Source of the DNA: Syntrophaceae bacterium UBA3084
GTDB taxonomy: Bacteria; Desulfobacterota; Syntrophia; Syntrophales; UBA6807
NCBI GenBank assembly: GCA_002367335.1
Contig: DFBI01000047.1
Coordinates: 1-39,264 of the forward strand
Length of the DNA: 39,264 bases
Direction: 5' to 3'
The notes under the pieces were generated by a model that saw only the letters and a program-made list of their open reading frames with translations, made no database searches and had not been told where the DNA came from. Made by a program: the position numbers and the translations under genes. The number at the start of each line of letters is the position of its first letter. Within the stretch, counting starts at the first letter, position 1. Of the stretch, positions 4,869-39,136 are shown one piece after another.

Positions 4869-5111
4869 CTACCTACTGCTTGCATTCAAAATCGTTATTC
4901 CTACAATTTTATCATCATCTGTTCTAATTAACACATCGTCATCCATCTCAACGGTCTTCTTTGCTCTTTGTGGCCTTCGAAAACTCAGATACAGAACATC
5001 CGCCTCTTTATCGTAGTCAACCCAAATATGCTTGACCGAAAGCCTTGCCAATTCTGATGATAGCCCTAAGCAAGAATCGATCATTTCCTTATTTACTGAC
5101 TGCATCGCCAT
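4869..5111 (-). CDS. DUF2283-family small protein (putative antitoxin-like partner)
   Basis: 80 aa with the core VDYDKEADVLYLSF typical of DUF2283. Overlaps the upstream small ORF by 19 nt. Confidence 0.6.
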   Translation of the reverse strand: MAMQSVNKEMIDSCLGLSSELARLSVKHIWVDYDKEADVLYLSFRRPQRAKKTVEMDDDVLIRTDDDKIVGITILNASSR

Positions 5112-5395
5112 ATTGGCACCCCCTTTGGTTTTTTATCCAGAAAATAGGCTGTGATGACAAAGCCATCTTTTTTTGAAATTTCTCTGTAAACGACTACCAG
5201 CCATTTATCTCTCCCTATATTCCTCGTCGCCTTCAGACTACCCTTATTGCCTCTGATTATGAATTCCGGGTTTTCAACCACTTCCATGACTTCGAAATAG
5301 TAGCTGGCTAAGTCATCGTGGTTTTCAGTAATATGGAACCATCTTTCATACGTTAAACGTATCGGTACACCATTAACAGAATAGGCTATCTCCAT
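5093..5395 (-). CDS. DUF4258-like small protein (putative toxin-like partner)
   Basis: About 100 aa from ATG 5395 (the track starts at TTG 5413). The pattern H.TE.H...ENP.F......VVVY......VITAYF resembles DUF4258 proteins, which commonly pair with DUF2283. Confidence 0.45.
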   Translation of the reverse strand: MEIAYSVNGVPIRLTYERWFHITENHDDLASYYFEVMEVVENPEFIIRGNKGSLKATRNIGRDKWLVVVYREISKKDGFVITAYFLDKKPKGVPIWRCSQ

Positions 5396-5444
5396 ATTAA
5401 GTTCTCTTCCCAACTTCTCATCTCATCCTCTTCTTTTCCCACCT

Positions 5445-5575: not shown

Positions 5576-5603
5576 TCATCCTTTTTCTTTCCGTCCTCCT
5601 TGT

Positions 5604-5652
5604 CCCGTTGAATTGCTCCGCCAGGAGCACCCCGAAGGGGATTCAACCGGGG
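5604..5652. repeat. Nested hairpin element, copy 2
   Basis: Outer stem CCC-GTTGAAT (5604-5613) pairs with ATTCAAC-c-GGG(G) (5641-5652). Inner hairpins are TGCTCC-gcca-GGAGCA (5614-5629) and CCCC-gaa-GGGG (5630-5640). Confidence 0.75.
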
Positions 5653-5677
5653 TGTCCTCCGCCCTCTGCCCTCCTTG

Positions 5678-5722
5678 CCCCGTGAAATTCACGAAGTGAC
5701 AGCGTAGTGCATTTCACCGGGG
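5678..5722. repeat. Nested hairpin element, copy 3
   Basis: Outer stem CCCC-GTGAAAT (5678-5688) pairs with ATTTCAC-c-GGGG (5711-5722), with two compensatory changes relative to copies 1 and 2. Inner hairpin is TCAC-gaa-GTGA (5689-5699). Confidence 0.75.
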
Positions 5723-6105
5723 TGTCCTCCGTCCTCCGTCTTCCCGACTTCTGATCTCTGATCTCTGATCTCCGATCTCTGATCCCCGTCATCCGACCTC
5801 TGTCCTCTGTCATCTGACATCTGACCTCTGTCTTTTCCGTCCTCCGTCCTCTGTCTTCCGTCCTCCGTCCTCTGTCCTCTGTGTCTTCCGTCCTCCGTCC
5901 TCTGTCCTCCGTCCTCTGTCCTCCGTCCTCTGTCCTCCGTCCTCTGTCCTCCGTCCTCCGTCCTCTGTCATCCGTCCTCTGATCTCCGTCCTCTGTCCTC
6001 CGTCCTCTGATCTCCGATTTCCGTCCTCTGTCCTCCGTCCTCTGTCCTCTGTCATCCGTCCTCTGATCTCCGTCCTCTGTCCTCTGTCCTCTGACCTCCG
6101 TCCTC
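5723..6105. repeat. Large tandem heptanucleotide array, about 54 units YCYGWYM (CCGTCCT, CTGTCCT, CTGATCT, CCGATCT, CTGACCT ...)
   Basis: About 380 nt with 7-nt periodicity and a few 2-nt phase slips (near 5834 and 5880). Ends 6 nt before the stop codon of the intact PGT. It generates the spurious 101-aa RTEDGG ORF at 5810-6115. Confidence 0.95.
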
Positions 6106-9918: not shown

Positions 9919-10073
9919 TTATTTTCTGGCAAAAAAGGCCCTGATCTTCGAACAGATGTAAGAGACATCCTCGTCGCTTAAAAAAGAGGAGGAAGGAAGC
10001 CAGAGCCCATGCTTTGCAACATATTCTGCCACAGGAAACTCTCCATTCAGTCTGTAGGGAGCCTGCGGATGGG
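9919..10073 (-). pseudogene. C-terminal tail (about 45-50 codons) of a DegT/DnrJ/EryC1-type sugar aminotransferase
   Basis: A minus-strand frame reads ...HPQAPYRLNGEFPVAEYVAKHGLWLPSSSFLSDEDVSYICSKIRAFFARK*, the typical DegT C-terminus (FP.AE......GL.LPS...L.dedv.yic..i). It has no body or start and abuts the truncated PGT. Confidence 0.75.
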
Positions 10074-11228
10074 CCGGGGACCGATAAGGCTCATCTCCCC
10101 CCTTAGTATGTTTATCAGTTGCGGTATCTCATCAAGCCTGGTTTTTCTCAAAAACCTCCCCACACCGGTAATCCTGGGATCGTCCGAGCTGGACCATTTT
10201 GGTCCGGTCTCTTTCTCGGCCTCATCCACCATGGTCCTGAACTTGAGCAAGGTGAAAGGCCTTTCATTCATGCCCAGTCTTTCCTGCCTGAAAAAAACCG
10301 GTCCCTTAGAAGTGCTCTTTATGGCAAAGGCGATTATCAGCAATAATGGACCTGAGACAATCAGCCCCATTAAAGACAAAGTCAGGTCAAGCAGCCTCTT
10401 CAGCCTTAAATAAAAAGCCGGATGAAAGGATTTTTCCTGATGGGAAAAGAGCATCCAGGCATCGGCCACATGGAGAACAGGCACCTTGCCGGTCAACTGT
10501 TTATAAAAGGTTGGAAAGTCAAAAATTTGAATCCCCTTAAACTTCATGTCAATGAAAAGCTTCTTCAGGCCGGGGGCCCCTTTTAGCTTCTCGGCCACCA
10601 CCACGGTTCTTATCTTGTGCTGTTCTATGTATGAATCAATGCCTGTATCACATTTACTGCCATTGATTGCAAAGCAACCGGGATTCTCTTTATAATCCGA
10701 TATGATGCCGGTTAAATGGTAATTCATCAATGGATACTGATCGAGAAGCCCGGCAATCACTCCAGTTGATGGACTCGAACCTAACAGGAGAAGATTGTTT
10801 TGGAGCATCCTTTTCGAAAAAACCGCATAGAAAAGTCTTCGCCAGAAGTAGATGGCAGCTATCAGTAAGGGCACATGAATGAAGGCCACGATCCTTCCTA
10901 ATTTATCCTTAGGAAAGCCGTAGGAAGCAATGGCTATCAGACCAAAACCCAAAAAGACTGAAACCGTTATAAACAATAGCAGCCTGTCACGGGGACCCTT
11001 CTTTGTGACACTGTATAGCTCAAAGATGTAAAAAGTGACGAGATGGAGCAGGACAGCCACAAGGACCAGCCAGGAGAGCCTATCCCACAATTCAGCTAAG
11101 CTCCCTCCTTCAAATAATATAATTCTAATGGAATACGAGCATACAAACACGGCAAAGACAATTAGCGCATCAATCATTAATAACAGGAATTGCTTTTGCT
11201 TGTTTGGACTTTTCAGGAAAACGTTCAT
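10047..11228 (-). pseudogene. 3'-truncated PGT (bacterial sugar transferase lacking about the last 70-80 residues)
   Basis: 393 aa, colinear with the intact PGT through RLDEIPQLINILRGEMSLIGPRP. It then leaves homology (IRRLPTD*), so the PGLTGWAQV block and C-terminal helix are missing. Confidence 0.7.
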
Positions 11229-27047: not shown

Positions 27048-29123
27048 TCAGGTGAGTCTCCTGAATCCAGAATGAATGACATCTCCCTTGAGATATTTTT
27101 TTGTATCGCCTGACTCCAACGCTTCTTTGATTAACCCAAAAACAGAATCTGAATCAGCAATAAACTGATCAATAATGTGGTCAGAATAGGCATAGGTAGC
27201 GTACACTGCCGCGCCCAGAAGGTAACCTTTTTTCAGCATTTCCTGGGTATAGAGAGTTTGGACCGCCAAAGGGTTTTCAGCTTCGAAAGAAATGTGCGTC
27301 AGCGGCGGAATGCCGTTGATATGAACACGCAGATCATGTTTTTGAGCCAGCTTGCGCCAGCCATCATTGATTCTTTCACCATAGCGGACAAGGAATTCCG
27401 GCACATTGTTTTCTTCCATTTTTTTGATGGTTGCCAGCGCCGCGACAAAACCAATACGTTCTGTCCACATGGTAGAGCTGATAAAACTGTTCTGAGCGCA
27501 ATCCATGATGTTTCTTCGTCCAATAACGGCCGATATGGGAAAGCCGTTGCCAAAGGCCTTGCCAAAGACTGCGATGTCCGGCTCGATTCCGTAAGTCAGA
27601 TGAATGCCGCCCAAATTGATCCTGAAACCAGAGGTCACCTCATCAAAAATGAGAACTGCTCCGATTCTGTCAGCAATTTCTCTGATACCTTCAAGAAATC
27701 CGGGAGCAGGACCTTGCTCCCGCCGAGGTTCCATGATGATGACACCAATTTCATCAGGATATTTGTCCACCAATACCTCAAGTTCATTAAGTTTGTTGTA
27801 GTTGAATGGCAATGCAGTATCTTTGAGTTCCCGCGGAACACCAAGAGGATCAAGTCCGGGCAGGAGCTGGCCATCAAGATTAGACGCGTCTCCGATATTG
27901 GCAGACAGATACCAGTCATGCCAGCCATGATAACCGCAAAAAGCTACCCTGCTCTTTCCTGAAGCTGCACGGGCAATGCGAACAGCAACGGCACAGGCTT
28001 CGCCACCGGTTCTTGCAAAACGCGCCATATCAGCCCAGGGATGCAGATCGATAAGCCGCTCGGCCAGTTCCACTTCCTCATAGCAGCTCAGGGAACACAT
28101 TGCCCCTTTTTGAATGGCCTCAATCACGGCCGCATTCACATCTTCATCAGCATACCCAAGGATGCATGATCCTACGCCCATTTGAGCAAAATCATAATAA
28201 TGATTCCCGTCCATATCCCAGACTTCACAACCTTTTGCTTTTGAGTAATAGGCAGGCCAAAGATCAGGGAGAAATTTTTCAGCCCTCTTGGAAAGGAGTT
28301 GATTGCCACCGGGGATTAGTGTTTTTGCTTTATTCCATAAGGCTGGGCCTTTCATCATTTCTTTCATTCCTTGCTTTTCTTTTTCCTGAATTTTATGAAA
28401 ATTCTCCCAATACTTTTTGGCAATTGGTTCCGTGATACGATATAGTTCTTTATCTATCACGAACTTCACGATTTCTTCATCTTGAGCTGTAACTATGTCA
28501 TCTCCGAATGCTTCAATAACTGCTTTGAAAAATTGGTAATCCTCATCGTAGTCAAGTGTAAATCTCAAAGCATTGTCATAAACGGGAAAAGGGATATGAA
28601 TATCCGCGAGCTGTGCTTGATTAAATATGCGTCCCCATCCTGTCTCCAAAATATCCCCAAAGTGACCCTTTAAGGATGATTCTAAAAAACCCTTAGAATA
28701 TCCACTGGAATTCATACCAAAGGGCAGATTTGAAGTTTTAACATACGATGCGCCATGAAGCAGGGCATTATAAACGGCTCTTATTCCTTTTACCGAACAC
28801 AGGATGTCATCGCCATCAATGGAAACAATAGCATCAAGGGAATGCGCCTTTGCCGCCTGAAGATGTCGAAGAGGAATATTGTTAATTGAGCCATAAAAAA
28901 CTGCTGCCTTATCTTTCGCAAAACGTTCTAACTCCCTGTTTTCTCGTTCGTCAGAAGTAGCAATGATAATATTGACTTTTCCATCAATCAGTTCAGTCTG
29001 AAATTCTTCTGCTACTCTTTCAATAAGGAAGTGTAAGATGGGATGGCCATTAACCGGTAACAGATGTTTCTTTTTAAGCCTTGTTGATCCGAGTCTTGCG
29101 GTGATAAATATCCCTATTTTCAT
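27048..29123 (-). CDS. Fusion protein: N-terminal cytidylyltransferase (CTP_transf_3, SpsF/NeuA-like) plus C-terminal class-III PLP aminotransferase (glutamate-1-semialdehyde aminomutase-like)
   Basis: The start is set at ATG 29123 (MKIGIFITARLGSTRLKKKHL), giving an ATGA overlap with the upstream stop. From about residue 262 of the track ORF the sequence matches class-III aminotransferases: LIPGGNQLLSK, DEVTSGFR and FGKAFGNGFP (PLP-binding Lys). Confidence 0.8.
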   Translation of the reverse strand: MKIGIFITARLGSTRLKKKHLLPVNGHPILHFLIERVAEEFQTELIDGKVNIIIATSDERENRELERFAKDKAAVFYGSINNIPLRHLQAAKAHSLDAIVSIDGDDILCSVKGIRAVYNALLHGASYVKTSNLPFGMNSSGYSKGFLESSLKGHFGDILETGWGRIFNQAQLADIHIPFPVYDNALRFTLDYDEDYQFFKAVIEAFGDDIVTAQDEEIVKFVIDKELYRITEPIAKKYWENFHKIQEKEKQGMKEMMKGPALWNKAKTLIPGGNQLLSKRAEKFLPDLWPAYYSKAKGCEVWDMDGNHYYDFAQMGVGSCILGYADEDVNAAVIEAIQKGAMCSLSCYEEVELAERLIDLHPWADMARFARTGGEACAVAVRIARAASGKSRVAFCGYHGWHDWYLSANIGDASNLDGQLLPGLDPLGVPRELKDTALPFNYNKLNELEVLVDKYPDEIGVIIMEPRREQGPAPGFLEGIREIADRIGAVLIFDEVTSGFRINLGGIHLTYGIEPDIAVFGKAFGNGFPISAVIGRRNIMDCAQNSFISSTMWTERIGFVAALATIKKMEENNVPEFLVRYGERINDGWRKLAQKHDLRVHINGIPPLTHISFEAENPLAVQTLYTQEMLKKGYLLGAAVYATYAYSDHIIDQFIADSDSVFGLIKEALESGDTKKYLKGDVIHSGFRRLT

Positions 29124-30142
29124 CCCTGAAACTCGATATAGGTTGAACATTTATCAGACTCTTCGATGGCATACAGCAATTTTAAAACCTTATGGTCGTT
29201 TTCCATGGAATTGATAAAAAGGGTTTTTTCTTCTATGGCCTGTATAAAAGCCTCCAACTCGTCAATATACATGTTTTCGCCTATATTCGGATTATAATCC
29301 CCCTCGGCTGGTTTCATTTCATAGGGCATGCTTTTCCATTCATTCATTTTTGGATCATATACCTGTATTTGATTTTGATTCCAATCCCACTGCAATTGCT
29401 TTTTATCTCCATTTATAAGGAGTCTCCTTGTAGCATAACGGGACACTACATCAATTGTCATTGTGGCCATAAAATCTTTGTAATCAAGGAGAAAATTATA
29501 AGTATCGTCAATTTCTTCCGCCCCTTTTATATCAATAGTCTTCCTGACATTTCCGCATACCCGTTTTGGAAATCCGAACAGATGTGTCAACCAGGTTAGT
29601 TCAAAGGGCACAATTTCCCGTGCCCCTCCAGTTGCGTGGTTGGAGACATAGTAGTCGGACACCTTTTCATAAGTATGCCAGTCAGGGAGATATTGCCCAG
29701 AATGAAAAATGATATTTGATACCTTGCCCAATACTTTTGATTTTAAAATATCGGATATTCTTTGTATCGCCGGATGAAAAAGAAGGGTTGATGAAGGAGC
29801 GGCCACTATGTCTGTATTTCTCAGTTTCTCCTTAATAATATCCATGTTTGTATCCACTACACTAGCCTCCACAAAAAAATGGATACCTTTTTCAATAGCA
29901 ATTTCCATATAAAGATGGTGAAAATCTGGAGGGACTGAGATAATAAGAGCGGAAGGCTTCTCGCTGTCCAGGGCTGTTCCTATATTGGAATAGCTTCTTA
30001 TCCCATACTTTTCCTCTGCTTCCTTTCGCCTGCCTTCTCTTACATCAAACCCCGCAATATCGTTAGTTTTATAACCTAAGGCCTTCAGACACCGAACCCT
30101 TCTTTTCCCCATGGATCCAAGACCAACTATTAAAAATCTCAT
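29120..30142 (-). CDS. Gfo/Idh/MocA-family NAD(P)-dependent oxidoreductase
   Basis: 340 aa with N-terminal MRFLIVGLGSMGKRR Rossmann motif and family length. Confidence 0.75.
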   Translation of the reverse strand: MRFLIVGLGSMGKRRVRCLKALGYKTNDIAGFDVREGRRKEAEEKYGIRSYSNIGTALDSEKPSALIISVPPDFHHLYMEIAIEKGIHFFVEASVVDTNMDIIKEKLRNTDIVAAPSSTLLFHPAIQRISDILKSKVLGKVSNIIFHSGQYLPDWHTYEKVSDYYVSNHATGGAREIVPFELTWLTHLFGFPKRVCGNVRKTIDIKGAEEIDDTYNFLLDYKDFMATMTIDVVSRYATRRLLINGDKKQLQWDWNQNQIQVYDPKMNEWKSMPYEMKPAEGDYNPNIGENMYIDELEAFIQAIEEKTLFINSMENDHKVLKLLYAIEESDKCSTYIEFQG

Positions 30143-32501: not shown

Positions 32502-33533
32502 TTAGCTTGTGGTTCGTAGTTGGTAACCAATCAGCTCGTCAACTTTGTAATCTCTGTCTGCCTTCCGCCCAATCACCTCATCCCATCGCATTGGACTGAT
32601 GCCTGTTCCGGGCCGCTTTGTGGTCAGATTTTCCTCGGTGAATTCTTCGCCTTCTTTAATGTCTCTTGCTGCCACAATGCTCTTTCGAGCGACGGGTTTG
32701 TTTTTCAGTTCCGAAGGCGACGGCTTTTTTATTTCGCTGCCAAGAGCTTTTTCGATATTGTGGATAGCCCGAACCATGGCTTTGAGTTCATCCGGTTCAA
32801 GAGAGGCTTTGTGATCCGGGCCTTCCATATTCTTGCTCAGAGTGAAATGCTTTTCGATGATCGAAGCTCCCATGGCAACGGCTGCAACAGGGACCTCAAT
32901 GCCTAATGTATGATCAGAATAACCGACTCGAATGCCGGGGGAGGCGGCCTTGATTGTGAGCATAGCCCTTAGATTTACATCCTGCATGGGTGTTGGATAC
33001 TCAGTATTGCAATGCAGGACTGCGATCTTATTAAGCGTAGTTCCAGCAGTAACCAATATATCAAGAGCAGCTTCGATCTCGCCTAAATCCGCCATGCCGG
33101 TGGAAAGAATTATCTCTTTTTTGAGAATGCCGATTTTTCGCAGATAGGGCAGGTTAGTAATCTCGCCTGATGGAATCTTGAAGGTCTCCAACCCCAGATT
33201 GTGCAAGAGGTCGATACTTTCCAGATCAAACGGACTGGAGAGAAACTGTATATCTTTCTGTCTGCAATAGGCGATGAGTTCCCTGTGAGCATCAGCATCC
33301 AGTTCAAGCCTTTTGATCATCTCGTACTGTGATTCGGCTCTGTCAGTAGTCTGTCTCTGATAATCAGCCTTTTGGGCCGACTTGCATACTACTTTGTCCG
33401 CCAAAAACGTCTGGAATTTTACGGCATCTGATCCAGCATCTACGGCAGCATCAATCATTTTTTTAGCCAGCTCCAGGCTTCCATTGTGATTTACGCCTGC
33501 TTCGGCAATGATGAAGGTTCTTTTATAGTTCAT
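32502..33533 (-). CDS. neuB: Nonulosonate (N-acetylneuraminate/legionaminate) synthase, NeuB/LegI family
   Basis: 343 aa with FIIAEAGVNHNGS, KFQTF and the C-terminal SAF/antifreeze-like domain (FTEENLTTKRPGTGISP). Confidence 0.92.
   Translation of the reverse strand: MNYKRTFIIAEAGVNHNGSLELAKKMIDAAVDAGSDAVKFQTFLADKVVCKSAQKADYQRQTTDRAESQYEMIKRLELDADAHRELIAYCRQKDIQFLSSPFDLESIDLLHNLGLETFKIPSGEITNLPYLRKIGILKKEIILSTGMADLGEIEAALDILVTAGTTLNKIAVLHCNTEYPTPMQDVNLRAMLTIKAASPGIRVGYSDHTLGIEVPVAAVAMGASIIEKHFTLSKNMEGPDHKASLEPDELKAMVRAIHNIEKALGSEIKKPSPSELKNKPVARKSIVAARDIKEGEEFTEENLTTKRPGTGISPMRWDEVIGRKADRDYKVDELIGYQLRTTS
32504..32531. repeat. Heptad tract AGCTTGT GGTTCGT AGTTGGT AACCAAT between neuB and neuC
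   Basis: Read directly. The units are related to the 33534-33554 tract. It encodes the last residues (YQLRTTS) of NeuB. Confidence 0.7.
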
Positions 33534-33596
33534 AGCTGGTAGCTCGTAGTTGGTAGCAAAAGAAGTGAAAGCTCAAAGATGAAAGATAGAAGAATT
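33534..33596. repeat. Nine heptads in one register: AGCTGGT AGCTCGT AGTTGGT AGCAAAA GAAGTGA AAGCTCA AAGATGA AAGATAG AAGAATT
   Basis: Read directly. It begins the nucleotide after the neuB start codon and runs into the acetyltransferase CDS, encoding its last residues (SSIFHL) and stop codon. Confidence 0.85.
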
Positions 33597-34187
33597 TGGG
33601 GGAGCATTCTTGATAATCTTTGCCCCGCAACCAATTATAGAATTTTCACCGATTTCAATATATTCCCGTGTTACCGCATTGCTGCCGAAAAAAGTCCCTC
33701 GACCAACCTTAACCCCACCGTTGATTACAGCGTCTGTGGCGATGTGGCAATGATCTTCGATGACGGCATCATGTTCGATAAGTGCCCTGGTATTGATGAT
33801 GCAGTTTTCCCCGATTTTTGCTCCAGCATTCACCAGTGCATAGTGCATGACGATAGTTCCCTCTTCAAGCCGGGCATGTCTCGAAACATAAGCCAGCGGC
33901 GATATAATTACAGGCAGCCTGCCGCCAAGTTTTTTTACTTTCTCGAAAAGCCTTATCCGCTTTTCCGGACTCTTGATCTGACCCAGAGTAACTAGGCAAT
34001 TCTTATGTTCCTTGACCAGATCAGGCAGATCATCATCTGTGGCGATGATTTCATAGCCCAGAATCTTCTGATGCAGCTTTTCCGGCACATCCACAATGCC
34101 CGCGATCTGAAACGTTCCAGCCTGTTCGATTACGTCAACGCAGGATTTACAGTGACCGCCTCCTCCTATGAGAATTATTTTATGCAT
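33573..34187 (-). CDS. NeuD/PglD/LegH-family sugar N-acetyltransferase (left-handed beta-helix)
   Basis: 204 aa with a KIILIGGGGHCKS N-terminal Rossmann-like domain and hexapeptide repeats in the C-terminal half. Confidence 0.85.
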   Translation of the reverse strand: MHKIILIGGGGHCKSCVDVIEQAGTFQIAGIVDVPEKLHQKILGYEIIATDDDLPDLVKEHKNCLVTLGQIKSPEKRIRLFEKVKKLGGRLPVIISPLAYVSRHARLEEGTIVMHYALVNAGAKIGENCIINTRALIEHDAVIEDHCHIATDAVINGGVKVGRGTFFGSNAVTREYIEIGENSIIGCGAKIIKNAPPNSSIFHL

Positions 34188-35811
34188 TTTGAAAAAATTT
34201 AATAATATAGTCTATTTCAGGCTCTTTTAAATTTACAGAACATGGAATATTAATAGTTTTGTCAATCAAATCATTTGCTTTTTCGATTTGATAAAATTGA
34301 CAACTCCTATAGGGCTTTTGCATATGGTTAAGGTACCATACAGGGCGTGTCTGAATATTGTTTTCAGTAAGGTAGGTCATTAACTGTTCTCTGTCTTTTC
34401 CGTATGCGCTTTTATCAATTTGCAATGCGTACATCCAATGATTGTTTTCCGCATATTCCGGAGTTTTCGCAATATGTAATCCTGAAATTTCATCAATTTC
34501 GTTTTTATAACGTCGATAGTTCCGCTTCTTTGTCTTTAAATATCCTGGAAGTTGTTCCAACTGTGCAACACCCATTGCCGCCTGAATATTTGTTAATCTG
34601 TAATTATAACCAATCTCATTATGAATATAACGAATTCCATCATCTTTGGCCTGTGTGGTCAGATATCTCGCTTTTTCCGCCAGCGCCGGATCATCGGTTA
34701 AGATCATCCCGCCGCCGCCGGTAGTGATTAACTTGTTCCCATTAAAGGAAAGACAGCCAAGTGTCCCCACAGTGCCGCAATGCCTGCCCTTATGTTTCCC
34801 GCTGATATACCGCGTGCCGAGACTTTCTGTGGCATCTTCAATGATTTTGATATTACGCTTGAGGCAGATATCGGTTAGTTCATCAAGGAATACGGCATTG
34901 CCAAATACATGGACAGGAATAATTGCGGAAATTCGCCTGCCGGTTAAACGGTTGTACGTGGATCCACTTCGAAATTCCGTCTCCTTTTCCAGAAAGCGGA
35001 TTACCTTGCCGGCATCAATGTTATAATATCGATCACAGTCCATAAACACCGGATCTGCCGATAAATATATAACAACATTTATCGGCGAGATAAAGGTTAA
35101 GGTCGGCACAATCACTTCATCCCCGGGCTGCACACCCGCCAGATTTAAGGCAATATGCAGAGCGGCAGTGCCGTTCATGCAGGCCACGGCATGCTTTGCG
35201 CCGGTGTATTCAGCAATCCTTTGCTCAAAGAGGTCCACATACTTTCCCACAGAGGAGACCCACTCGGTATCAAGACACTCCTTGATGTACTTCCATTCGT
35301 TGCCTTGAATAGATGGAACTGAAAGTGGAATAACTTTGCTATATTCTTTCTTTTCCGCTCCTTTGTTTTCTTCGCCGGAAAAAGGGTTAATTACATCAAA
35401 AAAATCGTATTTTTTAAAATCCTTGTCGTTTGCGGTAATAAATTTCTTGATATTGTTATGCTTACATAGATTTGCAATTAAATGATCATAGATTTCATAT
35501 TTTCGGACGTTATGATTTGCGGCACTTTCAAAAGTAACCTCCAAAATATCTATATTTGTTTCCAATACCTCTATTTTTTTATTAAGTAAGATATTCTTAA
35601 TAATTCCATAGGATTTATCCGGTGAAATTGGGTCGCTAACCACCTTATCATTAGTAATGATCTGATAAAATTCAATCAAACTTATATCAGCAATAGCAAA
35701 TCCATCTGCCCGGATCAGGTCTTCAAGGACTGCTTCTGCCTTATCATTAAACTGTGACTGGGCATTAAAAGCATATATAAGGATATTGCTATCTATACAA
35801 ATATCCATCAT
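34180..35811 (-). CDS. PIN-domain (VapC-like) protein fused in frame to a DegT/DnrJ/EryC1-type (LegC-like) sugar aminotransferase
   Basis: Residues 1-144 have the PIN acidic set (IDSNILIY, LIEFY, EIYDHL, ITANDKDF). From about residue 159 the sequence matches the aminotransferase family: IPLSVPSIQGNEWKYIKECLDTEWVSSVG, NGTAALHIAL. There is no stop codon and no ATG/GTG/TTG in the 15-residue linker. Confidence 0.8.
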   Translation of the reverse strand: MMDICIDSNILIYAFNAQSQFNDKAEAVLEDLIRADGFAIADISLIEFYQIITNDKVVSDPISPDKSYGIIKNILLNKKIEVLETNIDILEVTFESAANHNVRKYEIYDHLIANLCKHNNIKKFITANDKDFKKYDFFDVINPFSGEENKGAEKKEYSKVIPLSVPSIQGNEWKYIKECLDTEWVSSVGKYVDLFEQRIAEYTGAKHAVACMNGTAALHIALNLAGVQPGDEVIVPTLTFISPINVVIYLSADPVFMDCDRYYNIDAGKVIRFLEKETEFRSGSTYNRLTGRRISAIIPVHVFGNAVFLDELTDICLKRNIKIIEDATESLGTRYISGKHKGRHCGTVGTLGCLSFNGNKLITTGGGGMILTDDPALAEKARYLTTQAKDDGIRYIHNEIGYNYRLTNIQAAMGVAQLEQLPGYLKTKKRNYRRYKNEIDEISGLHIAKTPEYAENNHWMYALQIDKSAYGKDREQLMTYLTENNIQTRPVWYLNHMQKPYRSCQFYQIEKANDLIDKTINIPCSVNLKEPEIDYIIKFFQNA

Positions 35812-36031
35812 CGTCTCTTCTATGCAGAAATTCTCTTGTTAAATTATCCTCTTTTAATTTTATTTTTGGTCCTTTTCTCAACAGCTCAATAAAATCTTTT
35901 GCGTCTTTAGTCTTATCTTCCTTTTCAATATCATAAATAATTTTTAGTTGCTTACCTGTTAATTTTTTCAGTAAATCAGGACTAATATCCAAAACTCCAT
36001 TGGATTTCATTTTGGTAATTATATGCTGCAT
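35789..36031 (-). CDS. Small protein, putative VapB-type antitoxin
   Basis: 80 aa, immediately upstream of and overlapping the PIN ORF. The N-terminal SNGVLDISPDLLKKL resembles an AbrB/SpoVT-like swapped-hairpin segment. The assignment rests mainly on position. Confidence 0.45.
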   Translation of the reverse strand: MQHIITKMKSNGVLDISPDLLKKLTGKQLKIIYDIEKEDKTKDAKDFIELLRKGPKIKLKEDNLTREFLHRRDDDGYLYR

Positions 36032-36057
36032 GTTGCCTCCTTAAACCGCCTCTCTTT

Positions 36058-37050
36058 TCAAATATTGTAGATATCAAACTTATATTTCTGCAAATTTTCA
36101 GGGTTCGTAAACCAGTTGATCGTCTTTTCAAGTCCTTCTCTTATTGAATACTTCGGCTCAAAACCGGTTAATTCCCTTATTTTTGTATTGTCGCACCACA
36201 AGCGATATACCTCTGATTTCTCGGGACGAAGGCGTGTATTATCTGTGATTACTTCTACATCGGAATTCATGATTTCTTTGATTTTATCAACTACGTCTCC
36301 TATGGAAATCTCAAAGTTGGAACCAATATTTACCGTCTCACCGATTGCCTTTTCGCATTCAGCAAGGGCAATAAATCCACGGCATATATCCTCAACGTAG
36401 CTGAGATCGCGCGTTGGGGTTAGATCACCAAGATTTATTACCCTTTTGCCACTTACAATCTGGGTAATAATGGTCGGGATAACCGCTCGAGCTGACTGGC
36501 GCGGCCCATAAGTATTAAATGGGCGTGCAATAATCAAAGGCAAGTTAAACGCATTGTGAAAACTTTTGGCCATTGCATCCGCGCAGATTTTTGAAGCACT
36601 GTAAGGTGACTGCGGCTGTAATGGGTGTTTTTCGTTAATAGGAACATACTGGGCTGTGCCATAGACTTCGGATGTGGATGTATGGATCACACGTTCACAC
36701 CCATTTTCAAGCGCCCCCTGGCAGATATTTAGTGTCCCTTTGATATTTGTATCCGCATAGCTGTCAGGCGCAACATAAGAATACGGTATCGCAATAAGAG
36801 CCGCCAGATGGAATATCACATCTACACCTTTGGTTATATGCTTGCAATAATGGGGATCGCGCACATCACCGGTTAGCACTTCAATATCATCCAGACAATC
36901 TATATCCTCCAGCCATCCCCAATAGTTGAAGGAATTATAGCAGCTTAATGCCTTGACGTCGGCACCGTGCTCCACCAGCATCTCAGTAAGATGCGAGCCA
37001 ATGAAGCCATCAGCACCGGTTACGAGAATGCGCTTATTTTTCAAATACAA
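36058..37050 (-). CDS. NAD-dependent nucleotide-sugar 4,6-dehydratase (LegB-like)
   Basis: 330 aa with a TTG start 6 nt after AAGGAG. Shows VTGADGFIGSHL, YNSFNYWGWL and SPYSASK (YxxxK). It is the first gene of the nonulosonate cassette. Confidence 0.8.
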   Translation of the reverse strand: MYLKNKRILVTGADGFIGSHLTEMLVEHGADVKALSCYNSFNYWGWLEDIDCLDDIEVLTGDVRDPHYCKHITKGVDVIFHLAALIAIPYSYVAPDSYADTNIKGTLNICQGALENGCERVIHTSTSEVYGTAQYVPINEKHPLQPQSPYSASKICADAMAKSFHNAFNLPLIIARPFNTYGPRQSARAVIPTIITQIVSGKRVINLGDLTPTRDLSYVEDICRGFIALAECEKAIGETVNIGSNFEISIGDVVDKIKEIMNSDVEVITDNTRLRPEKSEVYRLWCDNTKIRELTGFEPKYSIREGLEKTINWFTNPENLQKYKFDIYNI

Positions 37051-37071
37051 TCTTTACTCCTTATTGTTATT

Positions 37072-37090
37072 ACTAATGGGGGACGTTGGT
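37072..37090. repeat. 19-bp direct repeat ACTAATGGGGGACGTTGGT, copy 1
   Basis: Identical to 37327-37345. Lies just upstream of the legB-like RBS. Confidence 0.9.
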
Positions 37091-37326
37091 GCAAAGCTGC
37101 GTAAAGTTCGCTCGAGCCCACAGAGGCACAGAGGAATTATGAATAGGAAAGGAGGGCATGATTCTATGCGTCCCTTCTATCGCATCTCGTTTTTAATCAG
37201 CAGCTCCTATCGGCAGTCTCCGAACTCTGATACGTTTCTCCTCAAAGACAACGACCGCACCACCTCTTAACTCGTCCTCAATAGCAGAAAGATTAGCCAC
37301 AAGCAAAGAAACCTGCCTTTCGAATC

Positions 37327-37345
37327 ACTAATGGGGGACGTTGGT
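37327..37345. repeat. 19-bp direct repeat ACTAATGGGGGACGTTGGT, copy 2
   Basis: Identical to 37072-37090. The two copies bracket 236 bp. Confidence 0.9.
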
Positions 37346-37357
37346 AGTTTTGTCAGT

Positions 37358-37600
37358 TTATGCAAGTATATCCCTCAACTTTGGGTCATTGTCAACTATC
37401 ATTTTTCCCCTATACACGCATTGACCGACACTTACCCGCCCAATACTCAGTGCCTCGGCAACCTCCGAAGCACTGTATCCGTTATCGCTTACAGCTAGGA
37501 ATGATATTATAGCTCGAGCCATACTAACTTCCCTTCTTCGGCTAGAAGAAATGATAGAGTTCGTTTTTAGATCAAGGTGGGAAGCGACTTTATCAATTAA
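37358..37600 (-). pseudogene. Start-less C-terminal HTH fragment (DnaA-C-like tail seen on some IS200/REP-associated Y1 transposase-like proteins)
   Basis: The minus frame reads LIDKVASHLDLKTNSIISSSRRREVSMARAIISFLAVSDNGYSASEVAEALSIGRVSVGQCVYRGKMIV...*. It is preceded by an in-frame TAA at 37601-37603. The family assignment is from memory only. Confidence 0.35.
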
Positions 37601-37684
37601 TTAATCTCTTAAACCTTCAGCTATGCTGATGGTCCTAGTTTTGCTATGCGGGTAAGTGGGAGTATTTTTTCACCGCCCGCTTCG

Positions 37685-37905
37685 CTCAAGACGCAAAGTT
37701 CGCAAAGAAAAGATATATTTTTTCTGCTGAGAGGGCAGAAAAGAATACGCTTACGCAAAAACCATAGCATAATCATTCAAAGCACATATATACCGACGAA
37801 TAGAATTGTATAGTTGCCATAAGGCTTGTAGCTTTTGTTTTCCTTTCTTTCAAAGGAAAACAAAAAGGAAGTAAACTTGGCGTTCTTTGCGTCTTTGCGG
37901 TAAAA
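37685..37905. repeat. REP/MITE-like unit: imperfect inverted repeats carrying AAGACGCAAAG (37688-37698) and CTTTGCGTCTT (37885-37895) around a 14-bp hairpin (37833-37865)
   Basis: The 11-nt cores are perfect reverse complements, with partial matches in their flanks. Each arm is internally reiterated (CGCAAAG x2; TCTTTGCG x2). The central stem is TTTTGTTTTCCTTT / AAAGGAAAACAAAA. Confidence 0.5.
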
Positions 37906-38214
37906 TAGATGCCAGGAATCATCAGCCTTGTCACTCTGCGGTGTCTTGCACCAAGTTAATCCTCGACTTAAACCTGGCGAAAGGAAGAAACTGCCCCACG
38001 GGTTCGAGACCCAAGGCAGGGACCTTCTCTTCCGCTAGAATGGCTGGTTTTACCGATAAAAGAAAGCTTTTCATTTTTTTAACTTTGAACATACAAGGCA
38101 AAATCACCACTGCCCAAAATTCTTTCATCTCCCTTTTCCCATTCTTCCTTCTTTCTCCCCAATAGATTCCTTTTGTTCCCGCCCGCGCTTCGGACCAATC
38201 CACCACCCGATAAA

Positions 38215-38249
38215 GCTCAAAGCTGAATGCTGAATGCTCAAAGCAACTA
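38215..38249. repeat. Heptad tract GCTCAAA GCTGAAT GCTGAAT GCTCAAA GCAACTA
   Basis: Read directly. The last unit contains the stop codon of the four-helix-bundle pseudogene. Confidence 0.8.
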
Positions 38250-38450
38250 AGATGAAGAGATCGAATTTATGAGACCCTTTATCATGGACACTATTTCTTT
38301 ACCATGCATTTCGAGTTGAGAATAACGATCATCAGATATCCATTTCTTTCTCCGGAAAATTTCGAGCAAGGTCATTGTTTCATATAATGACCCCCTTGAT
38401 ATGTACAAATATTGCACAAACTCCTTTTTTGAAAAACGACCTTGCCCTCT
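38247..38450 (-). pseudogene. Four-helix-bundle (23S rRNA IVS protein family) gene, C-terminal half
   Basis: The minus frame reads RGQGRFSKKEFVQYLYISRGSLYETMTLLEIFRRKKWISDDRYSQLEMHGKEIVSMIKGLINSISSS*, matching the family from the (NIAE)GQGR motif onward. It starts directly after the GIY-YIG stop codon. Confidence 0.75.
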
Positions 38451-38705
38451 TTACCCGGTTAAATAAGATTTGAGTCGCTTTTTTAGAAACATTCTGCCAT
38501 GATATGTCTTTAGATATTTTTCACGTCTTGTTGCATCTTCTCTACTAAGACAGGCTTCATAATAGATCAAATTGAAAGGTGCTCTTTTTTTAGTAGAATC
38601 CACAAGGCCCTTGTTATGTCGCTCAAATCTTAACTTGAGTTCTTTTGTGAATCCAATATAGAATTTTCCATCCTTTTGGCTTTGCAAGACATAAGTGTAA
38701 TACAT
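38451..38705 (-). CDS. Small GIY-YIG nuclease-family protein (UPF0213/YhbQ-like)
   Basis: 84 aa from ATG 38705. Shows YYTYVLQSQKDGKFYIGFT (GIY...YIG) plus the R...H.N and E..L motif positions. Confidence 0.85.
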   Translation of the reverse strand: MYYTYVLQSQKDGKFYIGFTKELKLRFERHNKGLVDSTKKRAPFNLIYYEACLSREDATRREKYLKTYHGRMFLKKRLKSYLTG

Positions 38706-38717
38706 CACATATTCAAG

Positions 38718-38878: not shown

Positions 38879-39136
38879 TTATCTCAATGCTCTTCTGATT
38901 TTCTTCGGATCTTGACGGAGATCCAGAACTCTCTTAACTAAGATAAGATCCTGATTTTCCATGGTGTAGTAGATGGCATACGGGAATCTTTTTGAAAGTA
39001 ACCGATGATAACCAGCGACTTTCCGATGAATTCCGCTATACAGAACCAACGAGTCAATGTCAGAAAACAATGAATCAAAGAAGTAATCCCCTACCCCCAC
39101 ACCTCTATAATAACGAAATCCAGATGATTTTATCAA
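38879..39136 (-). CDS. RelE/ParE-family toxin, probably N-terminally shortened
   Basis: 85 aa with the C-terminal pattern FPYAIYYTMENQDLILVKRVLDLRQDP typical of ParE-type toxins. No antitoxin-like ORF is visible upstream in the remaining 128 nt. Confidence 0.6.
   Translation of the reverse strand: MIKSSGFRYYRGVGVGDYFFDSLFSDIDSLVLYSGIHRKVAGYHRLLSKRFPYAIYYTMENQDLILVKRVLDLRQDPKKIRRALR

Follow-up and report, generated by a model that had tools for sequence, protein, structure and literature searches.

A VapC-type PIN domain fused in frame to LegC-family aminotransferases of uncultured bacteria: a candidate captured toxin-antitoxin-like cassette

How is an enzyme of a surface-sugar pathway made when its gene has no start codon of its own? 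The question is raised by an open reading frame (ORF) on contig DFBI01000047.1 of Syntrophaceae bacterium UBA3084 (GCA_002367335.1), of which positions 1-39,264 were analysed as one stretch, here called the window. The ORF lies on the minus strand at 34180..35811, encodes 543 residues without an internal stop, and would yield a single product in which a VapC-type PIN domain is followed by a 15-residue Lys/Glu linker and a complete LegC aminotransferase. The first-pass annotation of this DNA had described a PIN ORF that lacks a stop and runs on into a complete DegT-type aminotransferase, and the uninterrupted frame and the domain matches confirm it. The answer favoured here, held at about even confidence, is that a VapBC-like cassette was captured in frame and that LegC is made only as a toxin fusion.

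The N-terminal part of the product (residues 1-144; 35380..35811, minus strand) is matched by the Pfam PIN family PF01850 over residues 4-137 (E 2.8e-12; 47.8 bits against a gathering cutoff of 23.6), and its closest solved structure, found with a profile of the subfamily, is VapC43 of Mycobacterium tuberculosis (7vwo, E 5e-11). The acidic residues D7, E47, D109 and D131 (numbered in the 543-residue product), which had been described as intact, are indeed present and are invariant or nearly so across 20 family members; the tetrad is retained in every fused lineage except P0249, where a glutamate has become glutamine and an aspartate threonine. In relatives the domain begins at what is here the second ATG (35808, MDICID), the first lying at 35811, and it ends in an INPF motif that coincides with the point where standalone relatives stop. 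The nearest PIN domains beyond the fused clade are such standalone proteins, about 143 residues long and 42-55% identical, which end at INPF plus 0-1 residue. The C-terminal tails of three standalone PINs (P0168, P0171 and P0175) resemble linkers. The possibility that the nuclease domain has been domesticated, suggested earlier, is not favoured, given that both the catalytic residues and the partner ORF have been kept.

The C-terminal part (34180..35334, minus strand, with the stop codon) is a LegC-family, DegT-type aminotransferase dependent on pyridoxal phosphate (PLP). Pfam DegT_DnrJ_EryC1 covers residues 167-539 (E 1e-95), and the LegC model TIGR04181 matches residues 161-525 over its entire length (positions 1-359 of 359) with 492 bits against a cutoff of 420, as opposed to only 215.5 bits against a cutoff of 423.5 for the PseC model on the same domain. 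In an alignment of 18 sequences, S355-F-N-G-N-K360 and E325-D326-A327 are invariant; K360 is presumably the Schiff-base lysine of the DegT family.

Between the two domains lies the linker SGEENKGAEKKEYSK (residues 145-159; 35335..35379, minus strand). It contains AAAGGAG at 35364-35358, AAG at 35352-35350 and TAT at 35343-35341, the first two exactly where the first-pass annotation had placed them, and the linker sequence given there is likewise correct. The claim that the aminotransferase lacks a start codon of its own is also borne out: no ATG, GTG or TTG occurs in frame between codons 90 and 186, and the next in-frame start is a GTG at residue 187 (counted from MDICID), 28 residues into the invariant N-terminus of the aminotransferase. 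Standalone LegC proteins mostly begin M-S-[EKD]-x-IPLS, and alignment with them puts the old start at Tyr157, the TAT codon, within Y-S-K-V-IPLS. That TAT is a likely fossil of the legC start codon. Lys154 (AAG), previously proposed for this role, is the less parsimonious choice given how the standalone proteins begin, and the accompanying fossil ribosome-binding site, AAAGGAG, is present in the window and not conserved, reading AAAGAAG in L001, L006 and L007. Since standalone PINs stop at INPF and standalone LegC starts align to Tyr157, the linker is probably a former intergenic spacer between a vapC-like stop and the legC start. Its ratio of nonsynonymous to synonymous substitution (dN/dS) is relaxed and noisy, mostly 0.15-0.77 between close loci. 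The linker is probably disordered, as suggested by predicted local distance difference test (pLDDT) values of 22-29 in an AlphaFold2 model of the whole fusion that is otherwise poor as well (pLDDT 48, predicted template modelling score 0.39).

A natural deletion bears directly on where translation begins. The 392-residue protein P0012, a 'standalone' LegC found on at least 7 contigs (L003-L005), starts with MDICID followed immediately by SKVIPLS. Compared with the fused locus L007, L003-L005 lack exactly 450 nt (150 codons), and the junction falls at a 7-nt microhomology, ATAGCAA, present after PIN codon 6 and at the end of the linker. The small upstream ORF, the ribosome-binding site of the PIN gene and its start codon are all retained. 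Because the PIN start survives a deletion of this kind, the variant shows, as far as gene structure can, that LegC translation initiates at the PIN start, that a LegC can be made without the PIN domain and that an in-frame deletion is an escape route from the fusion. Together with the missing start codon, it supports the earlier proposal that LegC translation depends on the start site of a toxin domain.

Some other copies are disrupted. In Eth-SRB1 (L006 7200-7720; RPGP01000040.1) one frameshift, at a lysine-rich A-run (...LKTKK...), divides the fusion gene, and the remaining part of LegC continues intact in a different frame; the cause may be a homopolymer error of the assembly, decay to a pseudogene or a site prone to slippage. 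L009, a low-coverage contig, has a frameshift in the PIN N-terminus. At L035 2056-2820 the PIN ORF is cut at about residue 126 and followed by an inverted copy of legB (window 36290-37052 reversed), either a rearrangement or an assembly chimera.

The PIN domain does not travel alone. An ORF of 80 residues, a putative antitoxin with a GGAGG ribosome-binding site, occupies 35789..36031 on the minus strand, as the first-pass annotation had indicated, and overlaps the PIN frame by 20 nt measured from the conserved start at 35808, or 23 nt from the first ATG at 35811. A homologous ORF of 80-85 residues with the same 20-nt overlap precedes the PIN start in all eight fused loci that were fetched (L001, L002, L006, L007, L010, L031, L032 and L034); every close fused locus carries it at 86-94% identity, and L002 at 65%. 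In 13 loci a homologue of it is present upstream of a fused or a standalone PIN. The gene contexts of two standalone PINs, L011 and L013, were inspected, and both have an overlapping upstream ORF homologous to that of the window, with which it shares the motif DFIxLLxxGPKIxLxxDNxTRE[FW][LI]H...LYR. For this reason the small ORF and the PIN gene are, on comparative grounds, a genuine two-gene module family. The AlphaFold2 model of the small protein is poor (pLDDT 48).

The architecture is neither private to one assembly nor young. A search of 5.8 billion proteins returned PIN-DegT proteins in at least 10 clusters at the 90% identity level, from JGI, ENA, Logan and NCBI assemblies, with identities to the window protein of 93% (P0001), 81% (P0003), 76-78% (P0005-P0009) and 64% (P0010); a further one, P0011, comes from the metagenome-assembled genome (MAG) Desulfobacteraceae bacterium Eth-SRB1. 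The fusion genes are currently annotated only as aminotransferases or hypothetical proteins. The linker is open in all eight fetched loci, down to 62% nucleotide identity in L002. In most loci legB precedes the small ORF, and the acetyltransferase gene follows the fusion in L001, L002 and L010; it does not in L007, where the contig ends, or in L006 (Eth-SRB1). Between close fused loci dN/dS (Nei-Gojobori) is 0.18-0.25 for the PIN domain, which is under purifying selection, and 0.09-0.16 for the aminotransferase. Because the fusion is conserved, dN/dS is low and the tetrad is retained, both an artefact and a very recent read-through mutation are rejected. The latter, one of the explanations offered by the first-pass annotation, is refuted by the 62%-identical fusion of L002, by the PIN dN/dS and by the sister PINs fused to PseC that are described below.

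Within these loci, the history of the module is not that of its surroundings. A low-GC mosaic cassette spans 35300..36045 (minus strand) and comprises the ribosome-binding site, the small ORF, the PIN domain, the linker and an initial stretch of legC, some 10-25 codons long. The part from the small ORF to the linker is 89-97% identical in nucleotide sequence among the window, L001, L006, L007, L010, L031 and L032, and the aminotransferase domains of the fusions fall into three allele groups that are mutually 63-76% identical. For instance, the window and L031 are 97.0% identical in the cassette and 68.9% in the aminotransferase domain. Between the same loci legB is 63-83% identical, and the acetyltransferase genes are 58-77% identical between loci. 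Synonymous divergence is about 0.2 in the PIN domain compared with 1 to saturation in the aminotransferase domain, and in a tree of the latter the fused proteins are spread over four or more LegC allele groups, with standalone LegCs interspersed among them. The GC content of the cassette is 0.30 in every locus (0.31 for the PIN domain), as against 0.34-0.47 in the aminotransferase domain and 0.42 for the window as a whole; along the cassette region of the window it runs at 0.25-0.37, with flanks of 0.42-0.54. The left edge is placed about 15 nt before the ATG of the small ORF, as seen where the upstream context differs, and the right edge ~30-80 nt into legC in L001 and L006, or ~600 nt in L007 and L003.

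By these comparisons cassette and flanks have different histories, which means either that the cassette was passed between leg alleles or that glycan genes were swapped around a resident cassette. The pattern is compatible with an 'addiction device', another of the initial suggestions. Concerted evolution among copies within one genome was considered and set aside, as the window holds one copy and only one Eth-SRB1 locus was matched; collapse of the assembly was discounted as a cause of the cassette similarity, as the copies differ by 3-11%, mostly at synonymous sites.

The spacer in front of the cassette has features of its own. Between legB and the small ORF, several loci carry a tract of 90-190 nt that abounds in TTTGAGCTT-like tandem units and directly precedes the cassette ribosome-binding site (L010 ~440-530, L006 ~5600-5770, L031 914-1057 and L032-L035); the window, with just 26 nt between legB and the small ORF, lacks this tract. 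Genes for 23S-rRNA-IVP proteins stand directly upstream of the small ORF in L010, L015 and L037.

Fusion to a nonulosonate aminotransferase is also not confined to LegC. When a profile of the PIN subfamily was compared with 1.84 billion representative proteins, 4479 matches were obtained. Ten proteins longer than 170 residues among the best 150 of these were scanned, and gene contexts were inspected for a handful of family members. Seven of the ten are fusions of PIN to PseC: three are full-length, P0166 (548 residues), P0176 (573) and P0181 (559), with 482-553 bits against the cutoff of 423.5 of the PseC model TIGR03588, and four are partial (P0186, P0170, P0197 and P0249). Two more are frameshifted PIN-PseC proteins (P0167 and P0173), and one, P0292 (171 residues), is PIN only. 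All junctions run from INPF through an unrelated Pro/Ala/Ser/Arg-rich linker of 13-35 residues to the PseC N-terminus IPY[GA]RQSI. The PIN-PseC frame is uninterrupted in the DNA of L037, L040 and L041; these three loci have an overlapping upstream ORF of the same family as that of the window, and in L037 and L040 a pseB-like dehydratase gene precedes it. A homologous upstream ORF is also present in L015. In L015 (Candidatus Sumerlaeota MAG PWGE01000131.1) the order is pseB, a 23S-rRNA-IVP gene, the small ORF and the PIN-PseC fusion. Neighbour-joining analysis of the PIN domains, in a tree that carries no support values, groups the fused PINs in one sub-branch, interleaved with standalone PINs, and nests the LegC-type clade among standalone PINs. 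On this distribution the association of the PIN with Leg/Pse aminotransferases is non-random, and the fusion probably arose more than once. A separate observation concerns L015 1984-5551, where several copies of a short GC-rich repeat, translated ...GPRT[TP]D[HP]G..., form the PIN-PseC linker, extend the 3' end of pseB and interrupt the PseC domain; here a dispersed repeat appears to have created the in-frame fusion.

How might such an arrangement work? We propose that a two-gene, type II toxin-antitoxin-like cassette, consisting of an uncharacterised partner of ~80 residues and a VapC-family PIN RNase of ~143 residues, was inserted between legB and legC of a legionaminic-acid/surface-polysaccharide operon. 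The PIN stop and the legC start would later have been lost, turning a spacer of ~45 nt into a flexible linker of 15 residues. Transcription would come from the glycan operon, since the conserved cassette appears to have no room for a promoter, and translation would begin at the PIN start, coupled to the small ORF through the 20-nt overlap. The LegC domain may still perform C4 transamination, and the PIN domain may have remained an Mg-dependent RNase that the small protein keeps inactive. Homologous recombination in the conserved 3' end of legB and 5' end of legC could spread the cassette between leg loci. Its removal would be resisted, as loss abolishes LegC unless the deletion is in frame, and loss of the partner gene could free the toxin. 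As other lineages have members of this PIN subfamily fused to PseC, the cassette family may be a passenger specialised for nonulosonate (Leg/Pse) gene clusters. That the PIN has RNase activity, that the small protein neutralises it and that there is an addiction or anti-replacement effect is what we infer.

Several observations weigh against capture of a VapBC-like cassette. The small protein has no match in Pfam, NCBIfam, PADLOC or PDB profiles, and no recognisable antitoxin or DNA-binding fold (AbrB, ribbon-helix-helix (RHH), PHD/YefM or helix-turn-helix (HTH)) was detected in it; the earlier designation 'VapB-like' thus holds for position and co-conservation and fails for family, as no known antitoxin family was matched. 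The PIN domain scores 49.9 bits with the NCBIfam VapC model TIGR00028, below its cutoff of 73.6, and 18.6 bits with NF047959 (cutoff 80): it is of VapC type, yet outside the curated NCBIfam subfamily thresholds. Following legB after 26 nt, the cassette appears to have no room for a promoter or operator of its own, and a promoter and terminator scan of 33400-38400 found sites no more numerous than in shuffled sequence, unlike what is seen in classical autoregulated type II modules. Decayed copies (L033, L035, L036, P0121-P0123 and the Eth-SRB1 frameshift) imply that loss or breakage of the cassette is not obviously lethal, and Eth-SRB1 has a second legB-legC pair ~4.5 kb downstream of the fusion. 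The mosaic pattern fits either direction of exchange, with the cassette moving or the flanking glycan genes being swapped. Finally, a 'selfish accident' alone poorly explains why the fusion partners are always Pse/Leg aminotransferases.

This last point is where a selected functional coupling, unlikely in our estimate and still to be taken seriously, has its strength. The PIN domain would have been recruited as a sensor-effector or regulator alongside the aminotransferase: the RNase could be switched according to the enzyme's substrate, its PLP or its oligomeric state, or a complex of the small protein and PIN could regulate the glycan operon, so that nonulosonate synthesis would be tied to growth arrest, phage defence or turnover of the operon mRNA. 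The fusion recurs with two homologous pathway enzymes, LegC and, in several deeper PIN lineages, PseC, and no other partner occurs among the long members scanned from the best 150 matches; purifying selection maintains it, and the position at the junction of dehydratase and aminotransferase genes is common to the LegC-type loci, L015, L037 and L040. PIN toxins and DegT enzymes are both dimers, which makes the fusion sterically plausible. Conversely, the linkers are fast-evolving and unrelated in sequence and length (13-35 residues), which argues against a tight interdomain interface, and none is visible in a structure model too poor to reveal it. The PIN domain has been cleanly deleted in nature, close LegC relatives work without it, and neither the fusion nor the small ORF has a PADLOC match. 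A more specific and decidedly unlikely version casts the small protein as the brake on a VapC-type RNase that is gated by the Leg/Pse aminotransferase through its catalytic, substrate or oligomeric state. If it were true, disturbance of nonulosonate glycan synthesis by phage takeover, allele replacement or precursor starvation would trigger RNA cleavage and growth arrest, the LegC and PseC fusions would be convergent solutions, and no earlier toxin-antitoxin system would have had such a direct connection to a cell-surface sugar pathway.

The same deletion variant that speaks against coupling has kept no more of the PIN than its first six codons, together with the small ORF, as expected if the arrangement were a neutral frozen accident. 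The PIN would then serve LegC solely as a ribosome-binding site, a start and a tolerated N-terminal extension, its nuclease would be inactive or without relevance, and translational coupling would be the only reason for keeping the small ORF. The lack of a separate LegC start, the decay of many copies and the loss of two catalytic residues in the PseC-type P0249 all agree with this idea. It nevertheless seems quite unlikely, as a dN/dS of ~0.2 over 133 codons is not expected of a tolerated leader, the four catalytic residues are kept in nearly all lineages at 30-60% identity, and the repeated association with Pse/Leg aminotransferases would go unexplained. Free PIN and free LegC could also be produced from the one frame, either through proteolysis of the linker or through internal initiation at a non-canonical start inside or close to it. 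The codon where the shortest standalone LegCs (P0013, P0014 and P0016) start is a near-cognate GTT, ATT or CTT, relatives have in-frame linker starts (GTG at residue 146 in L002, ATG at 151 in L037, TTG at 156 in L040), and the linker is probably disordered. We regard two separate proteins as very unlikely all the same: the clade of the window has no in-frame ATG, GTG or TTG in codons 90-186, the unconserved AAAGGAG lies 23 nt from the GTT or 14 nt from the TAT, and the deletion variant re-uses the PIN start and not an internal one. As for a sequencing or assembly error that removed a stop or frameshift in the linker, nothing specific favours it beyond the frameshifts in some related contigs (Eth-SRB1 at a poly-A run, low-coverage L009), and it is practically out of the question given that the linker is open in independent assemblies, from different projects and assemblers, that carry synonymous differences.

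The locus around the fusion is that of a nonulosonate pathway. Upstream in the operon lies legB (36058..37050, minus strand), a gene for an NAD-dependent 4,6-dehydratase (TIGR04180, 512 bits against a cutoff of 475), the end of which is separated from the small ORF by 26 nt. Downstream, overlapping the fusion stop by 8 nt, is a gene for a NeuD/PglD-type, LegH-like N-acetyltransferase (33573..34187, minus strand; TIGR03570, 199 bits against a cutoff of 160.8). NCBIfam searches identified NeuB, NeuC and a CBS-nucleotidyltransferase as further neighbours on the same strand, completing the LegC pathway context nearby. A large surface-polysaccharide locus, likewise on the minus strand, takes up the remainder of the window. 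The window contains no second DegT gene and no further copy of the PIN or small ORF, and Rfam and tRNA scans of it were empty.

Some other genes of the window, all on the minus strand, merit a remark. A second enzyme fusion at 27048-29150 is a 700-residue ORF that joins an N-terminal CTP_transf_3 domain of the CMP-nonulosonate synthetase type (residues 15-146) to a class-III aminotransferase (residues 300-645). Small selfish-type genes are dispersed in the glycan operon: a 23S-rRNA-IVP (bAvd-like) gene at 1832-2464 flanked by two short-chain dehydrogenase/reductase genes, a truncated IVP gene at 38247-38417, a GIY-YIG gene at 38451-38708, an ORF at 5093-5413 with weak RelE/BECR-like matches and another at 38879-39136 that is ParE-like by eye only and has no Pfam match. 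The Bac_transf ORF (initiating sugar transferase) at 10047-11228 covers profile positions 1-111 of 179 and may be truncated, and the epimerase ORF at 3588-4688 matches its profile only from residue 92, leaving an N-terminal extension of ~90 residues unexplained.

Type II toxins are normally small, free proteins; to our knowledge few long ones have been described, and these, PhoH2 and EzeT among them, have RNA-handling or antitoxin domains as fusion partners. In the present case a toxin-type RNase domain is welded to an enzyme needed by a surface-glycan pathway, and repeatedly so (LegC and PseC), in uncultured bacteria. If the PIN domain is active, the locus may be a natural example of a selfish cassette that is hard to lose because a useful gene now takes its translation start from it, or alternatively one in which RNA cleavage and nonulosonate glycan synthesis are linked directly by regulation. 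A ready experimental set is available in the full fusions, a clean natural deletion of the PIN, a lineage with a dead active site and standalone relatives.

The closest described system is PhoH2/PhoAT of mycobacteria, in which an N-terminal VapC-like PIN domain is fused to a PhoH RNA helicase and the antitoxin gene is adjacent and upstream (PMC4826407). Both are 'long' type II toxins of 50-60 kDa in which an N-terminal VapC-type PIN is covalently joined to a second enzymatic domain and a small, co-transcribed adjacent ORF is taken as the antitoxin. The resemblance is architectural only: the C-terminal domain is DegT/LegC and not PhoH, so that a partner acting on RNA is replaced by a PLP-dependent sugar aminotransferase with no known RNA link, the fusion sits inside a glycan operon, and its small protein is unrelated to any described antitoxin. 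In the passages on EzeT and on multidomain RelE/ParE toxins, type II toxin domains are described as becoming multidomain by fusion of neighbouring cistrons (PMC4826407; PMC11980606); the fusions discussed there combine a toxin with antitoxin or sensing/defence domains and not with a housekeeping-type biosynthetic enzyme. The passages on aminotransferases in a PIN classification (PMC5499597) and in a comparative-genomics survey of type II systems (PMC2701414) contain no PIN-DegT fusion, and literature searches found no description of a PIN-aminotransferase fusion, of VapC with legionaminic acid or of a toxin-antitoxin system with pseudaminic acid.

With classical VapBC modules (M. tuberculosis VapBC43, 7vwo; the TIGR00028 group) the cassette shares the PIN fold, the D/E/D/D tetrad, a small upstream gene overlapping the toxin start and AT-rich, horizontally mobile, often decaying copies, and its nearest relatives are standalone toxins of 143 residues. 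Unlike them, it has no toxin stop codon and no free-standing small toxin, the PIN being attached to an enzyme of 384 residues; its partner has no detectable AbrB, RHH, PHD or HTH domain, the conserved cassette appears to leave no space for a promoter or operator, and TIGR00028 is matched below cutoff. The 384 C-terminal residues correspond in turn to a full-length LegC with the PLP lysine motif and canonical neighbours. Canonical LegC and PseC are standalone proteins of ~385 residues with their own start (M-S-x-x-IPLS or M..IPYGRQ), the place of which is taken here by a PIN and linker extension of 159 residues. Set beside these systems, the fusion would be a type II toxin of the multidomain kind, with a biosynthetic enzyme as its partner domain.

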